DNA of 64,000 bases, from IMG/VR virus record IMGVR_UViG_3300030618_000004, one strand, 5' to 3'. The stretch is from a virus. The notes under the pieces are model-generated. The model ran no database searches. It was not told the DNA's origin and was given only the letters and a program-made list of their open reading frames with translations. Shown here piece after piece: positions 45,010 to 59,529 of the stretch. Every line of letters starts with the position of its first letter. Position 1 is the stretch's first letter. The translations under genes and the position numbers were made by a program.

Positions 45010-45338
45010 GATTTATTCAACTCTTCATTTAGTTTTTCACCAATAGCGGCAGCAGCGCGAACTATTGCGCGTCGGGTGGCTGAAAATTTATCAATATTAT
45101 TAGCCCATAATTCTTGCGCCAATGATGGAAAATTAAATTTTTCATCCGATAAAGTGCTTGATGATTCGGAAAATTCAGATGACGATGCTACAATCAAATT
45201 TAACTTTACTGCCAATCGTAGTGCGTCTCCATCGTCGGTTAAGGGATTGAAATGTTTTTTCATGTCAGCATCCTGACCTAAGTCGGCGCCACTGAAAGCT
45301 GCTTTAAACGCTAATTTCGTAAGTTCTGAATCCGTCAT
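45006..45338 (-). CDS. DUF2591-like phage protein
   Basis: ELTKLAFKAAF...FNPLTDDGDALRLAVKLNL. It is a paralog of 16752..17069. Confidence 0.6.
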   Translation of the reverse strand: MTDSELTKLAFKAAFSGADLGQDADMKKHFNPLTDDGDALRLAVKLNLIVASSSEFSESSSTLSDEKFNFPSLAQELWANNIDKFSATRRAIVRAAAAIGEKLNEELNKS

Positions 45339-45892
45339 GCTGCTCTCCCGTGATTTTCTGTAAATTCATTGGTCAACTGGAATTTTTTAACAGCTAAAGC
45401 GGCCACTTTAATATCATCGAATAGTCCGATATGGTGGCGCTTGCCATTTACCGTCGATTGAGAACACCATCTCTTTGTCTGCTTATGCCAAACCACGCCA
45501 GATATACCAGAAGTGTTGTTCGAATTTAATTTACTGTTACGCTGGTTAATGCCCTTAGGGACATCTCGAAGATTATCAATTCTGTTGTTAAGTTTATCTT
45601 GATCAATATGATCAACTTCACCAGCAACCAAGTTCCCCATTACAATGAACCAAGCAAGTTGATGAGTTCTTATCCTGAATGGCTTTCCCCCATCAAATCT
45701 AAACAGTATTCTCCTATACCCCTTATCATCAATAGTCCCACATTCGACACCACCATACCGAGAGTTCCATCTGAGAGAATCTTTAACTTCAGGCGGCTTT
45801 CTCCGCCAAGTCATAATTCCTGTGTATGCGTTGTAGTAAACCATTCCTGCTGCCTTCGCCGCTAATTCAAGTAATTCACGATCTGTACTCAT
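45335..45892 (-). CDS. HNH homing-type endonuclease with an AP2 DNA-binding domain
   Basis: EVDHIDQDKLNNRIDNLRDV (HNH_3-like) and TSGISGVVWHKQTKRWCSQSTVNGKRHHIGLFDDIKVAALAVKK (AP2). Confidence 0.7.
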   Translation of the reverse strand: MSTDRELLELAAKAAGMVYYNAYTGIMTWRRKPPEVKDSLRWNSRYGGVECGTIDDKGYRRILFRFDGGKPFRIRTHQLAWFIVMGNLVAGEVDHIDQDKLNNRIDNLRDVPKGINQRNSKLNSNNTSGISGVVWHKQTKRWCSQSTVNGKRHHIGLFDDIKVAALAVKKFQLTNEFTENHGRAA

Positions 45893-47041: not shown

Positions 47042-47301
47042 GATTGTCCTTTAAATTCACGGATTTTATCCACCACTTCCCAGATGAAATTATCAGGCGG
47101 AATACTTGCTTCCAACCGCTTAATGAGGTATTCGTCACGCTGCTCTGATCCTAACTGCATAGAGAGTTCGACCAAGGATTGAACTGCATCCATTAAATCT
47201 ACTGGACTCATTCCTTTAGCTGTCAAAATGGATGGATAGAAAGGATTTTTATTAAAACCAGACTTTGTTGCGAGTTCCAACACTGTTTTTTGATCGATCA
47301 T
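47038..47301 (-). CDS. hypothetical protein (87 aa)
   Basis: ORF. Its start codon context (gatcat) is duplicated at window positions 1-6, so a homolog probably lies just left of the window. Confidence 0.5.
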   Translation of the reverse strand: MIDQKTVLELATKSGFNKNPFYPSILTAKGMSPVDLMDAVQSLVELSMQLGSEQRDEYLIKRLEASIPPDNFIWEVVDKIREFKGQS

Positions 47302-47558
47302 GATTTATTCCTTGCGAGGATTGCTTCTGCGCATTCAAATGCGCTAGATAAGCGATGCTTACTTTCCGCTGCAAGTTGATTAAAGTCATTACATATTTTC
47401 AGACAAGAATCCCTCTCATGCTGCGCGACCAGTTCAGCAAAACGACAGAGTTCAATAAATGTAGTCGGTATGCCCAACTCTTTCCAGTCTGGCCAGTGGT
47501 CTGAAACTATCTGCATTTCAGCCGTTTTTGCCAGCTTCAATATATCGGCTTGGTTCAT
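47298..47558 (-). CDS. hypothetical early protein (86 aa), paralog of 3..263
   Basis: The start is placed at MNQADIL to match copy 1. The nucleotide sequence is near-identical over about 263 nt. Confidence 0.6.
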   Translation of the reverse strand: MNQADILKLAKTAEMQIVSDHWPDWKELGIPTTFIELCRFAELVAQHERDSCLKICNDFNQLAAESKHRLSSAFECAEAILARNKS

Positions 47559-47764
47559 GGCTTGTTCCTTTGTTTTGCTGAACGGTCTTTCCATGAAAAT
47601 AAACAAAAAAGAACAGATACCCCATTACATCCCATTTCGTTTCTATCTTCAAATTCAAGTTCAAGATCAAATTTCATTTCTTCTGGGATTGCTCCGCTAC
47701 CATCTGAAAAAGTATATGTGTTGGTATTTACATCAAAATTTGTCCTCCCTAGAAATGGAGTCAT
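47555..47764 (-). CDS. hypothetical protein (69 aa)
   Basis: ATGA overlaps at both ends. Confidence 0.4.
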   Translation of the reverse strand: MTPFLGRTNFDVNTNTYTFSDGSGAIPEEMKFDLELEFEDRNEMGCNGVSVLFCLFSWKDRSAKQRNKP

Positions 47765-48651: not shown

Positions 48652-49323
48652 TTAGCTAACTCCGGATGGTTGTACAGGCTTAATTTTGATTGAATTTAAG
48701 AGCTTCTTGACTTCCTCTTTACCGTTACCGTTTTTGTTTGAATTCGTTAGCAAAGGATGCTCAGTAACGCCGGAAATTCGCAAAATGTTTTCTGCGCACT
48801 CGGGCAGAATCTTGACCGCGTGATCAATGCTGATTAAGCCGTCCTTAACCGCATCACACAAAACAGATTCACGTCCTCCGCGATCAGAACCAGAGGAAAG
48901 AAAATAAACCGGCTTACGACCTTCCAACTTCGCGCGTTCGATCAATCGATCGTACGCGTCGCGAAATGCCATCCGTGCCGCGTTCGATTCACCTTGCTCG
49001 AGCAACGGTGTAGCGTAGGACATGGCTTGGGAAATTTCATTCGTCATCAGAGCGCTTTCACTTTCCGATTGCGGCATTTTCGCCCAAGCTTCGTCGGCAC
49101 CCAACCATGTACCCGGGCATTGAATCTCGCAACCGTGAATGATTTCCGACAGCTGCGGCTTAAACTTGCTTGTGGCAATGAAATGCTGGGCCGACTTCAT
49201 GACGCTTCCCTTCGGATAACTGGACAGCTTGTAGAACCACATAGCCAGTCTGGATCCATCGAAAGCTGGCATGTCGTACTCTGCTGTCAGCAGCGCTATC
49301 GCTTGTGAAATTTCATTTTTCAT
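48652..49323 (-). CDS. putative helicase loader (G39P-like N-terminal domain)
   Basis: SAQHFIATSKFKPQLSEIIHG resembles the G39P loader signature. It lies directly downstream of the initiator gene. Confidence 0.55.
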   Translation of the reverse strand: MKNEISQAIALLTAEYDMPAFDGSRLAMWFYKLSSYPKGSVMKSAQHFIATSKFKPQLSEIIHGCEIQCPGTWLGADEAWAKMPQSESESALMTNEISQAMSYATPLLEQGESNAARMAFRDAYDRLIERAKLEGRKPVYFLSSGSDRGGRESVLCDAVKDGLISIDHAVKILPECAENILRISGVTEHPLLTNSNKNGNGKEEVKKLLNSIKIKPVQPSGVS

Positions 49324-50177
49324 GAATGCTTCTCCAAAAATAAATTCATGTTTTCCAACGTCTTACGCCTGTTTTCACTCATGTCAGAATTCAAAATGAC
49401 GCCGCGTTCGGCCATTTTTATAAAACTATCAAGTTTTACCGCCGTACGACAAATTAATTCAATGTCATCAAAAACGGTGTTTCTGTCATTTTTACCTTGA
49501 CTGAATGGATCGATAAAACACCCATCGATGGCTTTGCAAATTTCTCCCACTGTGTAACCGTCAAGCAAACGGGCTTTGATCGCCCTTAATCTTTTTGAAT
49601 CCAGTTTGGCATTTGGATGATTTAATTTTAATTGCCAATATTCAAAAATTTCTTCGACTTCCAAATTTGTGCTTGGAGTTATTTTTTTTTGTGGTTCAAC
49701 TGGACTGTGCTTTTCTCCTTCCCTTCCCTTCCCTTCCCATTCCCTTCCCTTCCCTTCCCCTTGGAAAAGATCGGCACGCGTAGTTGACGCGTGCTTCACG
49801 CGTGCTTCACGCGTTGGAACCCATATCTGGCTTAGTTCTTCGTGAGGTGATGGTATTTTAGATGCGCTTTCTTTATTATTTATCACTTGATGTTTTGACC
49901 ACGAAGGAATGAACCCGTAAATCTTGTTTTCTGACGTGTATTTAGAAATAAATCCACGCGTGAACAACGCGTCAAGCACGCGTGAAAAATCTAATTCATC
50001 GTGAGGCAGGCAGTCTAATTTTAGTGTTTTTGGGAGCCATTCGAATCGGCCTTCACGGTCACACGCCGTGAAAAGTCCTGCAAATGCAACTCTCATAGGT
50101 AATCCAGTTTCCTTCTCAAGGTCATAAAGACCCTCGTGTCTGAAAAAATCTGGTTTGACGGTTCTAATGCGGCCCAT
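49320..50177 (-). CDS. replication initiator-like protein carrying internal iterons
   Basis: N-terminal IRTVKPDFFRHEGLYDL...FTACDREGRFEW...IPSWSKHQVINNKE, and C-terminal FEYWQLKLNHPNAKLDSKRLRAIKARL. ACGCGT iterons lie inside the gene. Confidence 0.65.
   Translation of the reverse strand: MGRIRTVKPDFFRHEGLYDLEKETGLPMRVAFAGLFTACDREGRFEWLPKTLKLDCLPHDELDFSRVLDALFTRGFISKYTSENKIYGFIPSWSKHQVINNKESASKIPSPHEELSQIWVPTREARVKHASTTRADLFQGEGKGREWEGKGREGEKHSPVEPQKKITPSTNLEVEEIFEYWQLKLNHPNAKLDSKRLRAIKARLLDGYTVGEICKAIDGCFIDPFSQGKNDRNTVFDDIELICRTAVKLDSFIKMAERGVILNSDMSENRRKTLENMNLFLEKHS
49719..49759. repeat. (TTCCC)4-A-(TTCCC)4 pentanucleotide tract
   Basis: Read directly from the sequence. On the coding strand it is (GGGAA)n, encoding GKGREWEGKGREGE. 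Confidence 0.9.
49776..49983. promoter_or_regulatory. candidate replication origin: seven ACGCGT sites in two 11-bp-phased clusters
   Basis: ACGCGT occurs at 49776, 49787, 49798 and 49809, and again at 49956, 49967 and 49978. Spacing within each cluster is exactly 11 bp. Confidence 0.6.
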
Positions 50178-54985: not shown

Positions 54986-55014
54986 ATCGTAGTATCATTA
55001 AATGATAAAGTCAA
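54986..55014 (-). promoter_or_regulatory. leftward promoter (TTGACT-N17-TACGAT) with an embedded palindromic operator
   Basis: The reverse complement reads TTGACTTTATCATTTAATGATACTACGAT. The 13-bp palindrome ATCATT-A-AATGAT (54994-55006) sits in the spacer. Confidence 0.5.
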
Positions 55015-55037
55015 TATATAAATAAGTATAAAATATC

Positions 55038-55066
55038 TTGACAGGTAGATTATTGCGTCTTAATAT
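55038..55066 (+). promoter_or_regulatory. rightward promoter (TTGACA-N17-TAATAT)
   Basis: TTGACAGGTAGATTATTGCGTCTTAATAT, 58 nt upstream of the 55124 start. Confidence 0.6.
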
Positions 55067-55123
55067 TAGACATGAATTAAATGCCGACCACGGGCATCAG
55101 TGGTATTTAGTCAGGAGCTTTAA

Positions 55124-55441
55124 ATGTTGAAAATTATTCGTCAGGGAGATGTCTGCCTTCAATCAGTAAAATCAATACCAGTCGGTGCTGTCGAGATCAA
55201 AACAGAAGATAAACGCGTTGTATTGGCTTACGGCGAAGTAACTGGACATGCTCATGCTATCTATGAAGATATCGATCAAGTCAAAGTATGGGCGATTGGA
55301 AAGGTTAAATATTTGGAAGTGATGGCTTCGGTAGTTTTGAAACACGAAGAACATACTCACGCCAAGATCGAACCAGGTATCTACAAATTGCCTGTTCAGG
55401 TTGAATACTCGCCGAAAGAATTGCGCATCACGCGCGATTAA
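55124..55441 (+). CDS. hypothetical protein (105 aa) with RQGDV...GEVTGHAH motifs
   Basis: An AGGAG SD precedes the start. The ORF is followed by a terminator. Confidence 0.55.
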   Translation: MLKIIRQGDVCLQSVKSIPVGAVEIKTEDKRVVLAYGEVTGHAHAIYEDIDQVKVWAIGKVKYLEVMASVVLKHEEHTHAKIEPGIYKLPVQVEYSPKELRITRD

Positions 55442-55501: not shown

Positions 55502-56959
55502 ATGTTGAAAAAAATTAACTCATTAACGCCAGATCAAGAATTAAAAATGGCTGAGTTTCGGGATAAATGGCTCGGGATTGGTTTTTCTTGCCAGCCTGCA
55601 GACCGAGTGACAGCAGTTATTGGTGTAAATGAAGCATATCAATCTGCAGGCATGGAACCACCAAAATATATTATTTGGCTGGACAGCCCACTTTCTGGAG
55701 TATATGGCGCTGCAATTTTGGCTAACTCTCAAGTCGGGGCTCAGGTCGGGGCTCAGGTCTGGGATCAGGTCAGGGCTCAGGTCGGGGCTCAGGTCAGGGC
55801 TCAGGTCGGGGCTCAGGTCTGGGCTCAAGTCGGGGCTCAGGTCGGGGCTCAGGTCAGGGCTCAGGTCGGGGATCAGGTCGGGGCTCAGGTCAGGGCTCAG
55901 GTCGGGGATCAGGTCTGGGATCAAGTCGGGGCTCAGGTCGGGGATCAGGTCGGGGCTCAGGTCAGGGCTCAGGTCGGGGATCAGGTCGGGGATCAGGTCT
56001 GGGATCAAGTCGGGGATCAGGTCTGGGCTCAGGTCAGGGATCAAGTCGGGGATCAGGTCTGGGCTCAGGTCAGGGATCAGGTCTGGGATCAAGTCGGGGC
56101 TCAAGTCAGGGCTCAAGTCGGGGCTCAAGTCGGGGCTCAGGTCAGGGCTCAAGTCGGGGCTCAGGTCAGGGCTCAGGTCGGGGCTCAGGTCTGGGCTCAA
56201 GTCGGGGCTCAGGTCGGGGATCAGGTCAGGGCTCAGGTCGGGGCTCAGGTCTGGGATCAGGTCTACAAAGCTGGCTATGGCCAGCACGACGCAAATTGGT
56301 TGGCGTTTTATGACTTTTTCAATTTTTTAGGGATCGTTGAAACATCTAAACTTTCTGGAATGAATAAAATAGCTCAATCATCCGGGTGGTTTTGGCCTTT
56401 TAAAAATTTATGTATTTTGTCGGAACGACCCATTCACCTTTTCCGAGACAGTTCTAACCAGCTTCATTCAGAAAATAAAGCGGCGCTCGAATACAAGGAC
56501 GGATTCAAATTGTTCCGGTGGCATGGTGTCACGGTTCCTCAATGGCTAATTGAAAACCCAGAATTGGTCACGGTCGAAAAAATCGAATCAGAACAAAATT
56601 CAGAGGTTCGCCGGTGCATGATGGAGCGTTATGGATATGAGCGCTATATACGTGACTGCAATGCTGTTGTTGTAGATTCTTGTGATATCAATCATCCTAT
56701 CGTTGGTCTGCGTGATGCAAAGCTTTTGGTTAAAAAAGTTGTCGACGACGAAGACATTGTTTTTGTCGATATGTTGAATTCTACTCCGGAACCAGACGGT
56801 AGCGTTAATCGGTATTTGATACGTGTTGATCCAACTGCTTATGACGGCGACGCGGCACTTTATTGTCACGCTGCTGCGGCATCTACATGGCGCGACGAAT
56901 TGAATGGTGAATTTACTTTCAAAAACTGGAAAGACTACACTCCAGAATTTGAATCTTAA
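55502..56959 (+). CDS. tetrapeptide (Q-V-x-x) tandem-repeat protein with a conserved C-terminal domain
   Basis: 44 QV(G/R/W)(A/D) units. The C-terminal domain contains [15 protein letters not shown]...[20 protein letters not shown]...[15 protein letters not shown], which I recall as DUF6745-like (unverified). Confidence 0.7.
55730..56269. repeat. 12-nt tandem repeat, 44 units plus one degenerate unit
   Basis: The unit is CAGGTCGGGGCT. Substitutions are confined to three positions (G/A/T, C/A and a silent G/A). All frames are stop-free, which produces spurious ORFs. Confidence 0.95.
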
Positions 56960-57284
56960 CCGGTAGAACCGGCACTTCCCTGGGTGGAAAAGTCCTGAGT
57001 CTATGCTTAGCCAGGAAAACGTAGTTGGAAGTCGTTACCAGCACCAAGATTAGAACGGTCTCGGCAATATTCTGGTCATGACAGAAGCAAGCATTCGGTT
57101 CCAGACACATTACCCAGATCCTGGCAATGCAACCTTCACAGGTAAGACTGTTCTAATGTTGGTGTCGCATGACTGGAACCGGCTGGGTAGCATCCTCGCC
57201 CGAAAATCCGTGACGAAGTTTGGAGCACGCCCCATCGTACATAGTGAAGGTAGCCCGGCACCAACATTAATTTACAGGATAAAA
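56960..57284 (+). ncRNA. ORF-poor structured leader or ncRNA with mutually exclusive helices
   Basis: 57041-57061 pairs with 57145-57165 over 21 bp, with one G-G mismatch and three G-U pairs. The same 57154-57167 segment pairs with 57256-57269 over 14 bp, just upstream of the AGGA SD and the ATG at 57285. Confidence 0.45.
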
Positions 57285-58091
57285 ATGTCACAAAAAATAA
57301 TATCAGTTAGAGCTTCATCATTCGGAACGCTGTTTGATTGTGCGTACCGTTTTGAGGGTGAGCAGTTGATGAAGATGAACAAGCCTAGCAGCTTGCGCGC
57401 GTGGATGGGAACGTCTATTCATGCCAGTACGGCGGCGTTTGACTTGGCGGCATTAGATGGCAAACCAATTAGCGCCAATGAAGCTGCTGATGTTCTAGTT
57501 GAAAAACTTCATAATCCAGATTGCGAAGTGAATTACGAAGACGACAATATCAATCTTCGTGAAGCTGAGAAAATATCTCTGACATTGCATTCTCGGTATT
57601 GCGCAGAAATTGCTCCAAAGATGGTTTATCAGTCGATTGAAATGCCTTTATCGCCATTGGATATCGATTGTGGTGATAATCTGATTATTCGACTTACCGG
57701 CACCATGGATCGTGCCAGAGTCGTTAAATCGGTAGATGGCAAGGTCATTGCGGATTTAAAGACCGGAAGCCGATTAATCACTGAAGACAAGGTAAGTACC
57801 AAAGGCCGCGCAGCGCAGTTGGGAACTTACCAGATTTTGAGTGAGCACACGGACGGAGAAGAAACTTACGGAGCACAGATCATCGCGTTGCAGACCACAT
57901 CGGCAACGAAGGTGGGCGTCAGCAAAGTGTTTGATGCCAAGAAAGTGATGTTAGGCGATGAAAATCAGGAAGGTTTGATTCATATGGCAGCCAAGATGTT
58001 TAAAATCGGGTTATTCCCGCCAAATCCACAAAGCGTTTTATGCGACAAGAAGTATTGCAGTCGCTGGGGAGTTTGCACCTATCATGAATAA
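57285..58091 (+). CDS. Cas4/RecB-like PD-(D/E)XK exonuclease (start moved to MSQKIISV)
   Basis: RASSFGTLFDCAYRF, GTMDRARVV...IADLKTG and the C-terminal Cys cluster CDKKYCSRWGVC. Confidence 0.7.
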   Translation: MSQKIISVRASSFGTLFDCAYRFEGEQLMKMNKPSSLRAWMGTSIHASTAAFDLAALDGKPISANEAADVLVEKLHNPDCEVNYEDDNINLREAEKISLTLHSRYCAEIAPKMVYQSIEMPLSPLDIDCGDNLIIRLTGTMDRARVVKSVDGKVIADLKTGSRLITEDKVSTKGRAAQLGTYQILSEHTDGEETYGAQIIALQTTSATKVGVSKVFDAKKVMLGDENQEGLIHMAAKMFKIGLFPPNPQSVLCDKKYCSRWGVCTYHE

Positions 58092-58302
58092 ATTATTGAT
58101 TTTATTGTCTTGCGCCGTTCTGTCTGGTTGTATGGATAAAGGTAAGTGTTTGTTGTCGCATGAAGAAACATTTTTGCAACCTCAGTATTTCACAATGTGT
58201 GATTCAAAAGGAACGTGTACTTCACAATATCAGTACTCAATTCCAATTGAAGAAAATGTTTGCGATAAATGGGAGTTTCCAGAGGGTCGTAAAAAAGAGT
58301 AA
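58084..58302 (+). CDS. small lipoprotein (72 aa)
   Basis: Lipobox MNKLLILLSCAVLSGC. Confidence 0.6.
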   Translation: MNKLLILLSCAVLSGCMDKGKCLLSHEETFLQPQYFTMCDSKGTCTSQYQYSIPIEENVCDKWEFPEGRKKE

Positions 58303-58377
58303 AACGTACCATAAATCGATCATTAAGAGGTTACGGATCGATTTATCGAACAAAATTTTATTAATTGGGAGATTTAA

Positions 58378-59529
58378 ATGCAAGAAACAAAAACAGTTGA
58401 GCAACTTAAAAGTTCATCATCGCGTGAGATAGCGAACGTTCCAGATTTAAAAATCGATATGTTCTCGCTACGTGGATTCGAGCTAGCTCAGCGCATATCC
58501 AAGGCATTCGCAACATCTGACGCCGTTCCGGCAATATTCAGATCACACAACGTCAAAAAAACCAAAGAAGGGGAAGTTTGGGTTGAAAATCCTTCGTCTT
58601 TCGGAAATTGCTTGGTTGCGGTTGAAACTGCTCAAGCGGTCGGAATGTCGATTACTGCAGTAATGCAAAACGCCAACGTAATCGAAGGTAAATTGTCGTG
58701 GTCTGGAAAGTTCATTATCGCGGCAGTCAACGCTTCGAGACGATTCACGCCGTTGCGCTTTGATATCCAAAACAAAGGCATGATCACCGCAAAATATAAA
58801 GAAAAACAGGTGTGGAATAAAGAAAAAGGTGGTTACGATTTCACTGAAAAATCGGTTGAAGTTGAAAACCTTGAATGTACGGCCTGGGCATATATTATGG
58901 AAAGCGGCAAGGCCACACAAGAACGCATCGAAGGAGCACCGGTCAGCATGAAAATGGCTGTCGAAGAAGGCTGGTACGGAAAATCAGGAAGTAAATGGCA
59001 AACAGAAATGAAACATTTGATGCTTCAATACCGCGCTGGCGCTTACTTCGGAAACATCCACGCTCCGGACGTTGTAATGGGTATGGGAAGGACAACCGAA
59101 GAATTGGTTGATATGGGAACTATTGACGTTGAAAAACAGCCTGATGGTTCGTATGCAGCGACCAATCTGGAAGAACTACGCGGATCGGTTGAACCTAACC
59201 AGAACAAGAAACAAAAAGTCGATGCCCAAGAAGTGGACGTCAAAGAACAAGCCAAAGACACTAACCCAGAGAAAGACACCAGTGAAGTAACTGAACAGTG
59301 CCGATTTATTGAAAGAGCCATTGAACAATCAAAAACTGTTGATGACTTGCACTTGGCGGCCGATCTAATCAAAGACGTATTTGATACCAATCTGCAAGCA
59401 GGTTTGACTTACAAATACAAAAAGTGTCTGCATGATAGATTCGAAAATCCTGCAACTACTCCTGTTGAAGAAAAAAAACCAATTTCACGCCGCGGTAAAT
59501 CAACCACGTCTGACTTGAAAGTAGAGTAA
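58378..59529 (+). CDS. recT: RecT-family single-strand annealing protein
   Basis: GGGAGAT SD. The central region (GKLSWSGKFIIAAVNASRRF...WYGKSGSKWQTEMKHLMLQYRAGAYF) resembles RecT. It lies next to a nuclease gene. Confidence 0.65.
   Translation: MQETKTVEQLKSSSSREIANVPDLKIDMFSLRGFELAQRISKAFATSDAVPAIFRSHNVKKTKEGEVWVENPSSFGNCLVAVETAQAVGMSITAVMQNANVIEGKLSWSGKFIIAAVNASRRFTPLRFDIQNKGMITAKYKEKQVWNKEKGGYDFTEKSVEVENLECTAWAYIMESGKATQERIEGAPVSMKMAVEEGWYGKSGSKWQTEMKHLMLQYRAGAYFGNIHAPDVVMGMGRTTEELVDMGTIDVEKQPDGSYAATNLEELRGSVEPNQNKKQKVDAQEVDVKEQAKDTNPEKDTSEVTEQCRFIERAIEQSKTVDDLHLAADLIKDVFDTNLQAGLTYKYKKCLHDRFENPATTPVEEKKPISRRGKSTTSDLKVE

Follow-up and report, generated by a model that had tools for sequence, protein, structure and literature searches.

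Three motif copies in the spacer before a phage nuclease gene: a possible RNA hairpin or switch whose elements coincide with the boundaries of an indel

Do three copies of one motif in the spacer before a phage nuclease gene form an RNA switch, or do they mark the edges of a DNA rearrangement? The spacer in question belongs to the virus record IMGVR_UViG_3300030618_000004, of which a stretch of 64,000 nucleotides (the window) was analysed. It comprises 325 nt (56960-57284, plus strand) between the stop codon of a DUF6745 gene (56957-56959) and the ATG of a PD-(D/E)XK nuclease gene (57285), as delimited by the list of open reading frames (ORFs) and by Pfam, and lies inside a rightward early operon directly 5' of the recombination genes (ORF list, Pfam, PHROGs). 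The initial annotation described it as a leader in which the three motif copies form two mutually exclusive helices next to the Shine-Dalgarno (SD) sequence of the nuclease gene. We found that the features of this three-element spacer are real and non-random and that an RNA switch is possible, and also that the outer two elements bound a segment which the nearest relative lacks.

Element 1 (57038-57061, plus strand; repeat finder and base-by-base reading) combines the left direct repeat CCAGCACCAAGATTA (57038-57052) with the 5' arm of helix 1:2 (57041-57061). Element 2 (57145-57167, plus strand) is an inverted copy of the motif and supplies both the 3' arm of helix 1:2 (57145-57165) and the 5' arm of helix 2:3 (57154-57167), while element 3 (57255-57269, plus strand) consists of the right direct repeat CCGGCACCAACATTA and includes the 3' arm of helix 2:3 (57256-57269). 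The repeat finder itself reported arms at 57042-57061/57145-57164 (20 nt, 90%) and at 57154-57167/57256-57269 (14 nt, 93%). Read position by position, helix 1:2 (57041-57061 against 57165-57145) contains 18 Watson-Crick pairs, two G-U pairs (57041:57165 and 57057:57149) and one G-G mismatch (57048:57158). Its 21 positions and its mismatch had been described correctly, whereas its G-U pairs had been counted as three; the third (57063:57143) is reached only when a C-A mismatch is crossed. Helix 2:3 (57154-57167 against 57269-57256) extends over the annotated 14 bp with 13 Watson-Crick pairs and one G-U pair, and the two helices are mutually exclusive because both use element 2. Element 3 ends 6 nt before the AGGA (57276-57279) that, with the start codon at 57285-57287, forms the translation start of the nuclease gene (57276-57287, plus strand), again as first annotated.

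Elements 1 and 3 represent a 15-nt direct repeat, CCrGCACCAAsATTA (57038-57052 and 57255-57269), with 13 of 15 positions identical and a spacing of 217 nt. The core CACCAAsATTA is present in all three copies in forward, reverse and forward orientation, and GCACCAAsATTA, with at most one mismatch allowed, occurs in the whole 64 kb at these three sites only. A chance origin of the complementarity, which had been considered very unlikely, was evaluated with 1000 dinucleotide shuffles of the 325-nt spacer, and the expectation held: the best 20-nt inverted match (18/20) was reached in 0.1% of the shuffles, and the spacer contains four inverted diagonals with at least 10 matches in 11 positions, compared to a shuffle mean of 0.24 and a maximum of 2. 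Gapped local alignment of the spacer found no longer inverted or direct duplication hidden behind the smaller repeats, beyond elements 1-3. The annotated GC richness was likewise recovered: with a GC content of 52% the spacer exceeds the 42% of the window and ranks within the uppermost 3% of 217-nt windows, a contrast typical of structured RNA.

Relatives were sought through homologues of the nuclease and through the C-terminal domain of DUF6745, and a single diverged phage, L014, was found to share the gene order DUF6745, spacer, nuclease; DUF6745 homologues elsewhere have other neighbours. The nuclease of L014 is 90% identical in protein sequence, and its spacer measures 104 nt and has none of the helices. 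Homology between the window and L014 ends at ...CCAGCACCAA, is interrupted in the window by 217 extra nt, and resumes at CATTA... before the start codon. This extra segment (57048-57264, plus strand, GC content 51.6%; placed by alignment, with a register that is ambiguous within the 15-nt direct repeat) is bounded by element 1 (CCAGCACCAA-GATTA) and element 3 (CCGGCACCAA-CATTA) and carries element 2 in inverted orientation inside. L014 retains a single motif copy, CCAGCACCAA-TCC-CATTA, which joins the left half of element 1 to the right half of element 3, and such a hybrid is the expected remainder of a crossover between both repeats. A 325-nt spacer thus exists as annotated, but it is not one leader: its 5' 88 nt are separately conserved, at 96% identity to L014, and elements 1 and 3 bound a 217-nt indel. 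As judged from this alignment, the spacer is best explained as a composite of a conserved 5' block and a lineage-specific 217-nt segment that ends in elements 1 and 3. Eight further contigs with an identical nuclease carry exactly the spacer of the window (0 differences over 4.7 kb), and a ninth, L047, has a single nucleotide polymorphism (SNP) in 4.7 kb, located outside the spacer. As these contigs are clonal (0-1 SNP in 4.7 kb), their identical spacers carry no information, and the element is restricted to this single clonal population. The methodological lesson is more instructive than the regulatory reading itself: three apparently regulatory motif copies coincided with indel boundaries relative to the nearest relative, and such repeat layouts should therefore be compared with relatives before switches are called.

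Two histories account for the indel without extra substitutions: L014 may have lost the segment when elements 1 and 3 slipped or annealed, or a unit with a similar site of its own may have integrated into a site like that of L014. Replication slippage deletions have a classical substrate in direct repeats at a hairpin base (PMC4134008). The deletion history thus relies on a textbook mechanism, and it fits the high GC content common to the 5' block and the 217-nt segment; the insertion history fits a slot that is variable in relatives and the splitting of a minus-strand ORF that is continuous in L014. With the known slippage deletions the locus shares the direct/inverted/direct layout and the outcome, a single hybrid repeat in L014 with everything between the repeats missing, but it differs in that the direct repeats of the window are themselves hairpin arms and that L014 has three extra nucleotides (TCC) within the hybrid copy. 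Precise excision of Tn elements is a further case of slippage deletion between direct repeats.

What, then, might the segment do? Our preferred reading, which we hold tentatively, is that the early-operon mRNA carries, before the nuclease gene, an accessory RNA hairpin or switch that acts in cis; it would be dispensable, and a deletion between the direct repeats would have removed it from L014. Such a structure would control how the nuclease/RecT message is processed, how stable it is or how it is translated, and would do so either as an extended double-stranded RNase III-type target or as a translational riboregulator with two states. Transcription of the spacer from upstream is suggested by a good promoter-like site, TTGACA-17-TAATAT, at 55038, ahead of the rightward operon; the sole plus-strand terminator-like site between this position and the spacer is located within the DUF6745 gene. 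Moreover, no coding frame is apparent in the spacer: in six-frame translation, Pfam and PHROGs searches of every spacer ORF, tblastn and codon usage, none looks coding.

Folding predictions are in part consistent with this proposal. The hairpin domain at 57036-57170 reaches -44 kcal/mol and is more stable than shuffled sequences to a greater degree on the plus strand (z = -4.06) than on the minus strand (z = -2.60). When helix 1:2 is forced in 56960-57310, the predicted ensemble energy is -102.0 kcal/mol, and when helix 2:3 is forced it is -97.9 kcal/mol; the 1:2 state should be more stable by about 4 kcal/mol on the plus-strand mRNA, and the two conformers are close enough for a switch. With element 1 blocked, helix 2:3 is predicted to form and the SD region (57275-57280) to pair with GUCCUG at 56992-56997; the predicted probability that 57275-57280 is unpaired is 0.01-0.08 in the 2:3 state compared to 0.16-0.9 in the 1:2 state. 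A translational riboregulator calls for two helices that exclude each other and are similarly stable, with the SD or start covered by one of them, and the predictions give such a pair. A site of the RNase III type calls for about two turns of mostly Watson-Crick helix, and at 57041-57061:57145-57165, inside the operon, 20 of 21 positions are paired. Elements 1 and 2 would be transcribed first and would form a stable hairpin of 21 positions with an 83-nt loop; since they are made first, 1:2 is the expected default, in which element 3 and the nuclease SD would stay comparatively open. If element 1 were cleaved, occupied or melted, element 2 could re-pair with element 3 and the SD would be buried. 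The segment would be dispensable, and the L014 lineage would most likely have lost it through slippage or annealing of the direct repeats, which the hairpin brings together.

The attenuator or riboregulator layout that had been proposed survives in part: helices 1:2 and 2:3 can alternate, and 2:3 is predicted to mask the SD, but a transcriptional attenuator is not what they form. Past helix 2:3 the sequence continues with AUUUACAGG, and past helix 1:2 with CGCAUGAC; there is no U-run, and 56960-57284 contains no plus-strand terminator-like site. Because no helix has a trailing U-run, a transcription attenuator is excluded, and a translational switch or a double-stranded processing site remain. 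No leader peptide was found either; there is no short plus-strand ORF with an SD over element 1, and the sole open plus-strand frame runs into the nuclease gene.

Both modes of action have known counterparts. The intercistronic R sites of phage T7 and the N-leader site of lambda, which controls N translation, are RNase III hairpins in phage early mRNAs. The spacer resembles them in its imperfect helix of about 20 bp, in its position in an early-operon intercistronic spacer near a ribosome-binding site, and in the presence of a second long hairpin in the next spacer of the operon. It differs in its loop, which has 83 nt in place of a compact internal bubble, and in lacking sequence similarity; in addition, T7 sites are without a third element for alternative pairing. 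Alternating helices are the hallmark of trp-type leaders (1:2/2:3/3:4) and of translational attenuation of the ermC type. As in these regulators, the middle of three segments pairs with either neighbour and one state masks the SD, but the spacer lacks an SD-preceded leader peptide, the U-run of a terminator, an Rfam family and a known ligand, and its segments are 100 nt apart rather than adjacent. The second hairpin just mentioned lies in the spacer upstream of the RecT-like gene (58236-58380; -33.8 kcal/mol, z = -3.1), where a 10-bp outer stem encloses a perfect hairpin of 11 bp (AUAAAUCGAUC...); in L014 this place is taken by a small Cys-rich ORF that is unrelated. On these predictions, a well-folded second spacer would fit a phage that uses intercistronic hairpins.

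Several observations weigh against the RNA hairpin or switch. The spacer contains two further significant inverted repeats, 57096-57107/57170-57181 (11/12; spanning 57096-57181, plus strand), which crosses helix 1:2, and 57129-57139/57244-57254 (10/11; spanning 57129-57254, plus strand), which crosses helices 1:2 and 2:3 as well as the 57096/57170 pair. The two repeats cross each other and both main helices, with which they are sterically incompatible; the linker between 57254 and 57256 is a single nucleotide, which precludes their coexistence with helix 2:3. No single nested fold accounts for all inverted repeats, a simple two-state RNA model does not predict them, and their crossing looks more like repeated DNA motifs or the scar of a rearrangement than like one RNA fold. 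The fold of the whole spacer is no more stable than shuffles (z = -0.87 on the plus strand, -0.13 on the minus strand). The nearest relative dispenses with the structure, and compensatory changes are seen neither among the nine clonal contigs, whose spacers are identical to that of the window, nor in L014, which lacks the segment. A small element that integrated by way of a similar site would leave the same hybrid repeats as a deletion, and the strong conservation of the 5' block is left unexplained by the RNA model. Also the pattern of imperfect pairs offers little help: on the plus strand 57041:57165, 57057:57149 and 57165:57258 are G-U, corresponding to A-C mismatches on the other strand, and this pattern, which covers all non-Watson-Crick positions except the G-G, favours plus-strand RNA pairing only weakly because it reflects just two independent events. 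Finally, Rfam 15 gave no match at the gathering score in the window, and in 56800-57450 (E up to 10) returned chance matches only (E = 1.7-7.6).

Database searches added no further members. ARAGORN called no tRNA or transfer-messenger RNA in the window. Homologous leaders in related phages, to which the initial annotation had looked for covariation, were searched for without success in INPHARED, PLSDB, IMG/VR and GTDB genomes. Specifically, blastn of the spacer found no homologue among INPHARED phages or PLSDB plasmids; scans of IMG/VR with exact or gapped patterns built on three pairs (1:2, 2:3 and 57096/57170) and on the 5' block yielded nothing or, as judged by blastn, chance matches in coding DNA; and scans of GTDB genomes for the 1:2 hairpin and the 5' block yielded nothing. 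A metagenome scan with the nuclease protein recovered only a 70% relative that was already known, and the window holds no second copy of the segment. The locus would be of modest interest unless deeper sampling reveals covariation or mobility; if the RNA reading is true, it is one more phage that tunes its recombination genes via an intercistronic hairpin, which is useful for annotation and unsurprising.

A somewhat unlikely competitor to this reading is that the 217 nt are a relic of rearrangement, DNA without a regulatory role that arrived by illegitimate insertion or by integration of a small element, the helices being by-products. Elements 1 and 3 would then be a duplicated or hybrid target, and element 2 would belong to the inserted DNA. 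The coincidence of the indel boundaries with exactly these two elements argues for such an event, as does the fact that a target CCAGCACCAA|CATTA combined with a donor site CCGGCACCAA|GATTA generates precisely elements 1 and 3 without further substitutions; each helix crosses the others, and the segment splits the minus-strand ORF that is continuous in L014. The location is suggestive, too. More distant relatives, with nucleases 70-76% identical, have small ORFs overlapping the nuclease start (L001, L002, L015, L017), and in L022 (nuclease 72% identical) a free-standing plus-strand HNH endonuclease gene at 2041-2500 lies directly upstream of the nuclease gene. Together with DUF6745 in the window, these differing neighbours crowd the slot upstream of the nuclease gene, which, as far as gene order can tell, seems to be an insertion hot spot across phages. 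On the other hand, the ends of the segment lack terminal inverted repeats, there is no perfect target duplication, a second copy is absent from the window as well as from INPHARED, PLSDB, IMG/VR and GTDB genomes, and no recombinase or transposase was found among the window ORFs scanned. In addition, the segment is as unusual in GC content as the adjoining conserved block, and from this shared composition it can be argued that the two belong together. A miniature inverted-repeat or other miniature insertion sequence element in the strict sense was rejected, as inverted repeats are missing from the ends of the segment (57048-57264 or, alternatively, 57053-57254), the flanking repeat matches at 13 of 15 positions, and the segment is single-copy. 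A decayed HNH endonuclease gene, which the arrangement in L022 suggested, was rejected as well, since no similarity was found in the spacer. The public gene call at 2041-2500 of L022 is a spurious 69-aa minus-strand ORF.

More doubtful is an interpretation of the three copies, which are about 105-112 bp apart, as sites acting at the DNA level, either binding sites of a regulator of the recombination operon or crossover sites of a recombinase, between which inversion (1/2 or 2/3) or deletion (1/3) would take place. The core CACCAAsATTA is kept in all three copies with flanks that differ pair by pair, the motif is unique to this spacer, the other inverted repeats are ordered rather than nested, like separate DNA motifs, and L014 resembles the product of a 1x3 deletion. 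However, the ORFs scanned include no recombinase or integrase, all nine contigs (the eight with an identical nuclease and L047) show one orientation, and the early promoter region, at which the helix-turn-helix (HTH) regulator of the phage should act, lacks the motif; a search for an operator common to the spacer and that region found none. The G-U pairs at non-Watson-Crick positions point, weakly, to RNA, and L014 keeps but a single disrupted copy, CACCAA-TCC-CATTA. An invertible switch or shufflon was rejected on the single orientation in nine contigs, which holds at the contig level, and the lack of a recombinase among the ORFs scanned.

The 5' block, by contrast to the lineage-specific segment, is strongly conserved. 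Its 73 nt (56975-57047) differ from L014 at three positions (96% identical), and it is among the two best-conserved 60-nt stretches (58/60) of the 4.7-kb comparison, in which other spacers reach 40-55% and the flanking genes about 65-85%. Its plus strand has no excess stability compared to shuffles (z = -0.44), its three substitutions are not compensatory, and it matched no promoter consensus. The L014 alignment and the fold revealed an imperfect tandem duplication of 9 nt, CCGGTAGAA/CCGGCACTT (56960-56977, plus strand), immediately after the DUF6745 stop codon; it creates a CCGG-TAGAA-CCGG mini-hairpin and is present in a single copy in L014. The near-invariant block and the insertion-collecting slot before the nuclease gene may interest researchers of phage mosaicism.

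On the minus strand, the block would encode LVLVTTSNYVFLAKHRLRTFPPRE, which forms the core of a 63-aa ORF (56919-57110, minus strand) with one hydrophobic stretch followed by KHRLRTFPPRE. A second minus-strand ORF of 51 aa (57136-57291) begins with 11 codons, MTFLSCKLMLV, that correspond to the N-terminus of the minus-strand ORF of L014 (MIILCLIMGLV), and deletion of the 217 nt joins it in frame to the core of the 63-aa ORF (57291 - 57110 = 181; 181 - 217 = -36). The 63-aa ORF is a possible, if doubtful, gene on these sequence features, and a role of the 5' third of the spacer as a small antisense gene, encoding a type I toxin-like or small membrane protein with a hydrophobic helix and a basic tail, appears improbable. 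Elements 2 and 1 would in this case form a long-range hairpin in its mRNA that encloses the start codon, and early-operon transcription would be antisense to it. This frame is uninterrupted in the window phage as well as in L014; of the three block substitutions, two are synonymous in it and one changes N to S, and the 9-nt indel preserves it. The ORF is called by three public pipelines, and a gene would account for the conservation of the block compared to other spacers. Nevertheless, the ORF is an orphan among 5.8 billion clusters and 1.84 billion representatives and has no counterpart among Pfam or PHROG families; every real coding window surpasses it in codon-usage score, and a promoter-like site is missing upstream of it on the minus strand. 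The N-termini in the window phage and L014 are wholly different, and L014 has no SD for its ORF. At 96% nucleotide identity the block also shows far fewer synonymous changes than neighbouring real genes, and coding alone therefore does not explain its conservation. The locus recalls type I toxin-antitoxin systems (hok/sok-like) in its small hydrophobic-helix ORF antisense to the surrounding transcription and in the long-range hairpin enclosing the start, yet it departs from them in the missing family match and promoter-like site, the poor codon usage and the non-homologous N-termini in two phages.

We consider it very improbable that the 217 nt constitute a miniature integrative element without ORFs that inserts via a site folded into a hairpin, much as integron attC cassettes and the attP of CTX-phi do. 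By analogy with these systems, element 1 or 3 would pair with element 2 in single-stranded DNA, and the element would have landed in the early operon and left hybrid direct repeats, L014 representing the empty or excised site. The likeness consists in forward/reverse/forward sites, hybrid direct repeats that end a short inserted unit, and an inverted pair (2:3) that spans 116 nt and lies within the size range of attC; the difference is that the window has no GTTRRRY/RYYYAAC core, no dif-like site, no integrase/Xer context and no other copies. An integron cassette with attC in the strict sense was rejected since, on reading, the element sequences misfit the R''/R' cores (RYYYAAC ... GTTRRRY) and there is no integrase among the ORFs scanned.

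That the spacer is coding on the plus strand, with ATG 57078 as the nuclease start and an N-terminal extension of 69 aa, can practically be dismissed: the frame is open from 57054, and public records of 5 contigs, the longest of which measures 100,266 nt, list a 337-aa product, but more than 100 homologues have 264-287 aa (mostly 264-271), the closest homologues examined begin at the equivalent of 57285, an SD is lacking before 57078 and present as AGGA before 57285, the extension is wholly absent from L014 and has a codon score below 99% of real coding windows, and its sole match, in family searches and in tblastn against phages (there to a Leuconostoc phage), is a prohead protease at chance level (E = 0.011 and 0.1). 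Homologue lengths, starts and codon score thus agree with the earlier view of the ORF from 57078 as an artefact, which stems from an open upstream frame, and the public 337-aa record is a mis-called start that propagates in databases.

The early operons diverge from a control region at about 55014-55124. The leftward operon begins with a small HTH regulator, followed by NinB, a helicase/methylase and an O-like replication initiator (PHROGs), and the rightward operon encodes, in order, a 105-aa protein, the DUF6745 protein (55502-56959), then after the spacer the PD-(D/E)XK nuclease (57285-58091), a 72-aa ORF, a RecT-like protein, an unknown protein and an SbcC-like protein. At 55700-56240 the DUF6745 gene contains a long GC-rich (about 65%) tandem repeat encoding (G/D/R/W)AQV units, whose number varies among otherwise identical contigs; the gene encodes a hypervariable repeat protein, with products of 485, 361, 329 and 321 aa. 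The phage origin probably lies at 49775-49986, where direct and inverted repeats containing CACGCGTG cluster within the gene of the O-like initiator (49320-50177, minus strand). The spacer as an iteron-type replication origin was rejected, as the iterons are located in this cluster inside the initiator gene and not in the spacer. A free-standing gene for an endonuclease with HNH_3 and AP2 domains is found in the leftward early region (45335-45892, minus strand). Finally, an exact 265-nt direct repeat occurs at 1-265 and 47296-47560, with copies 47,295 nt apart and the first copy cut by the window start, and the window contains two replication/recombination gene sets (ERF/DnaB/ParB at 4-12 kb and RecT/O-like/helicase at 48-60 kb); the repeat and the double gene sets could reflect an assembly join or two related elements.

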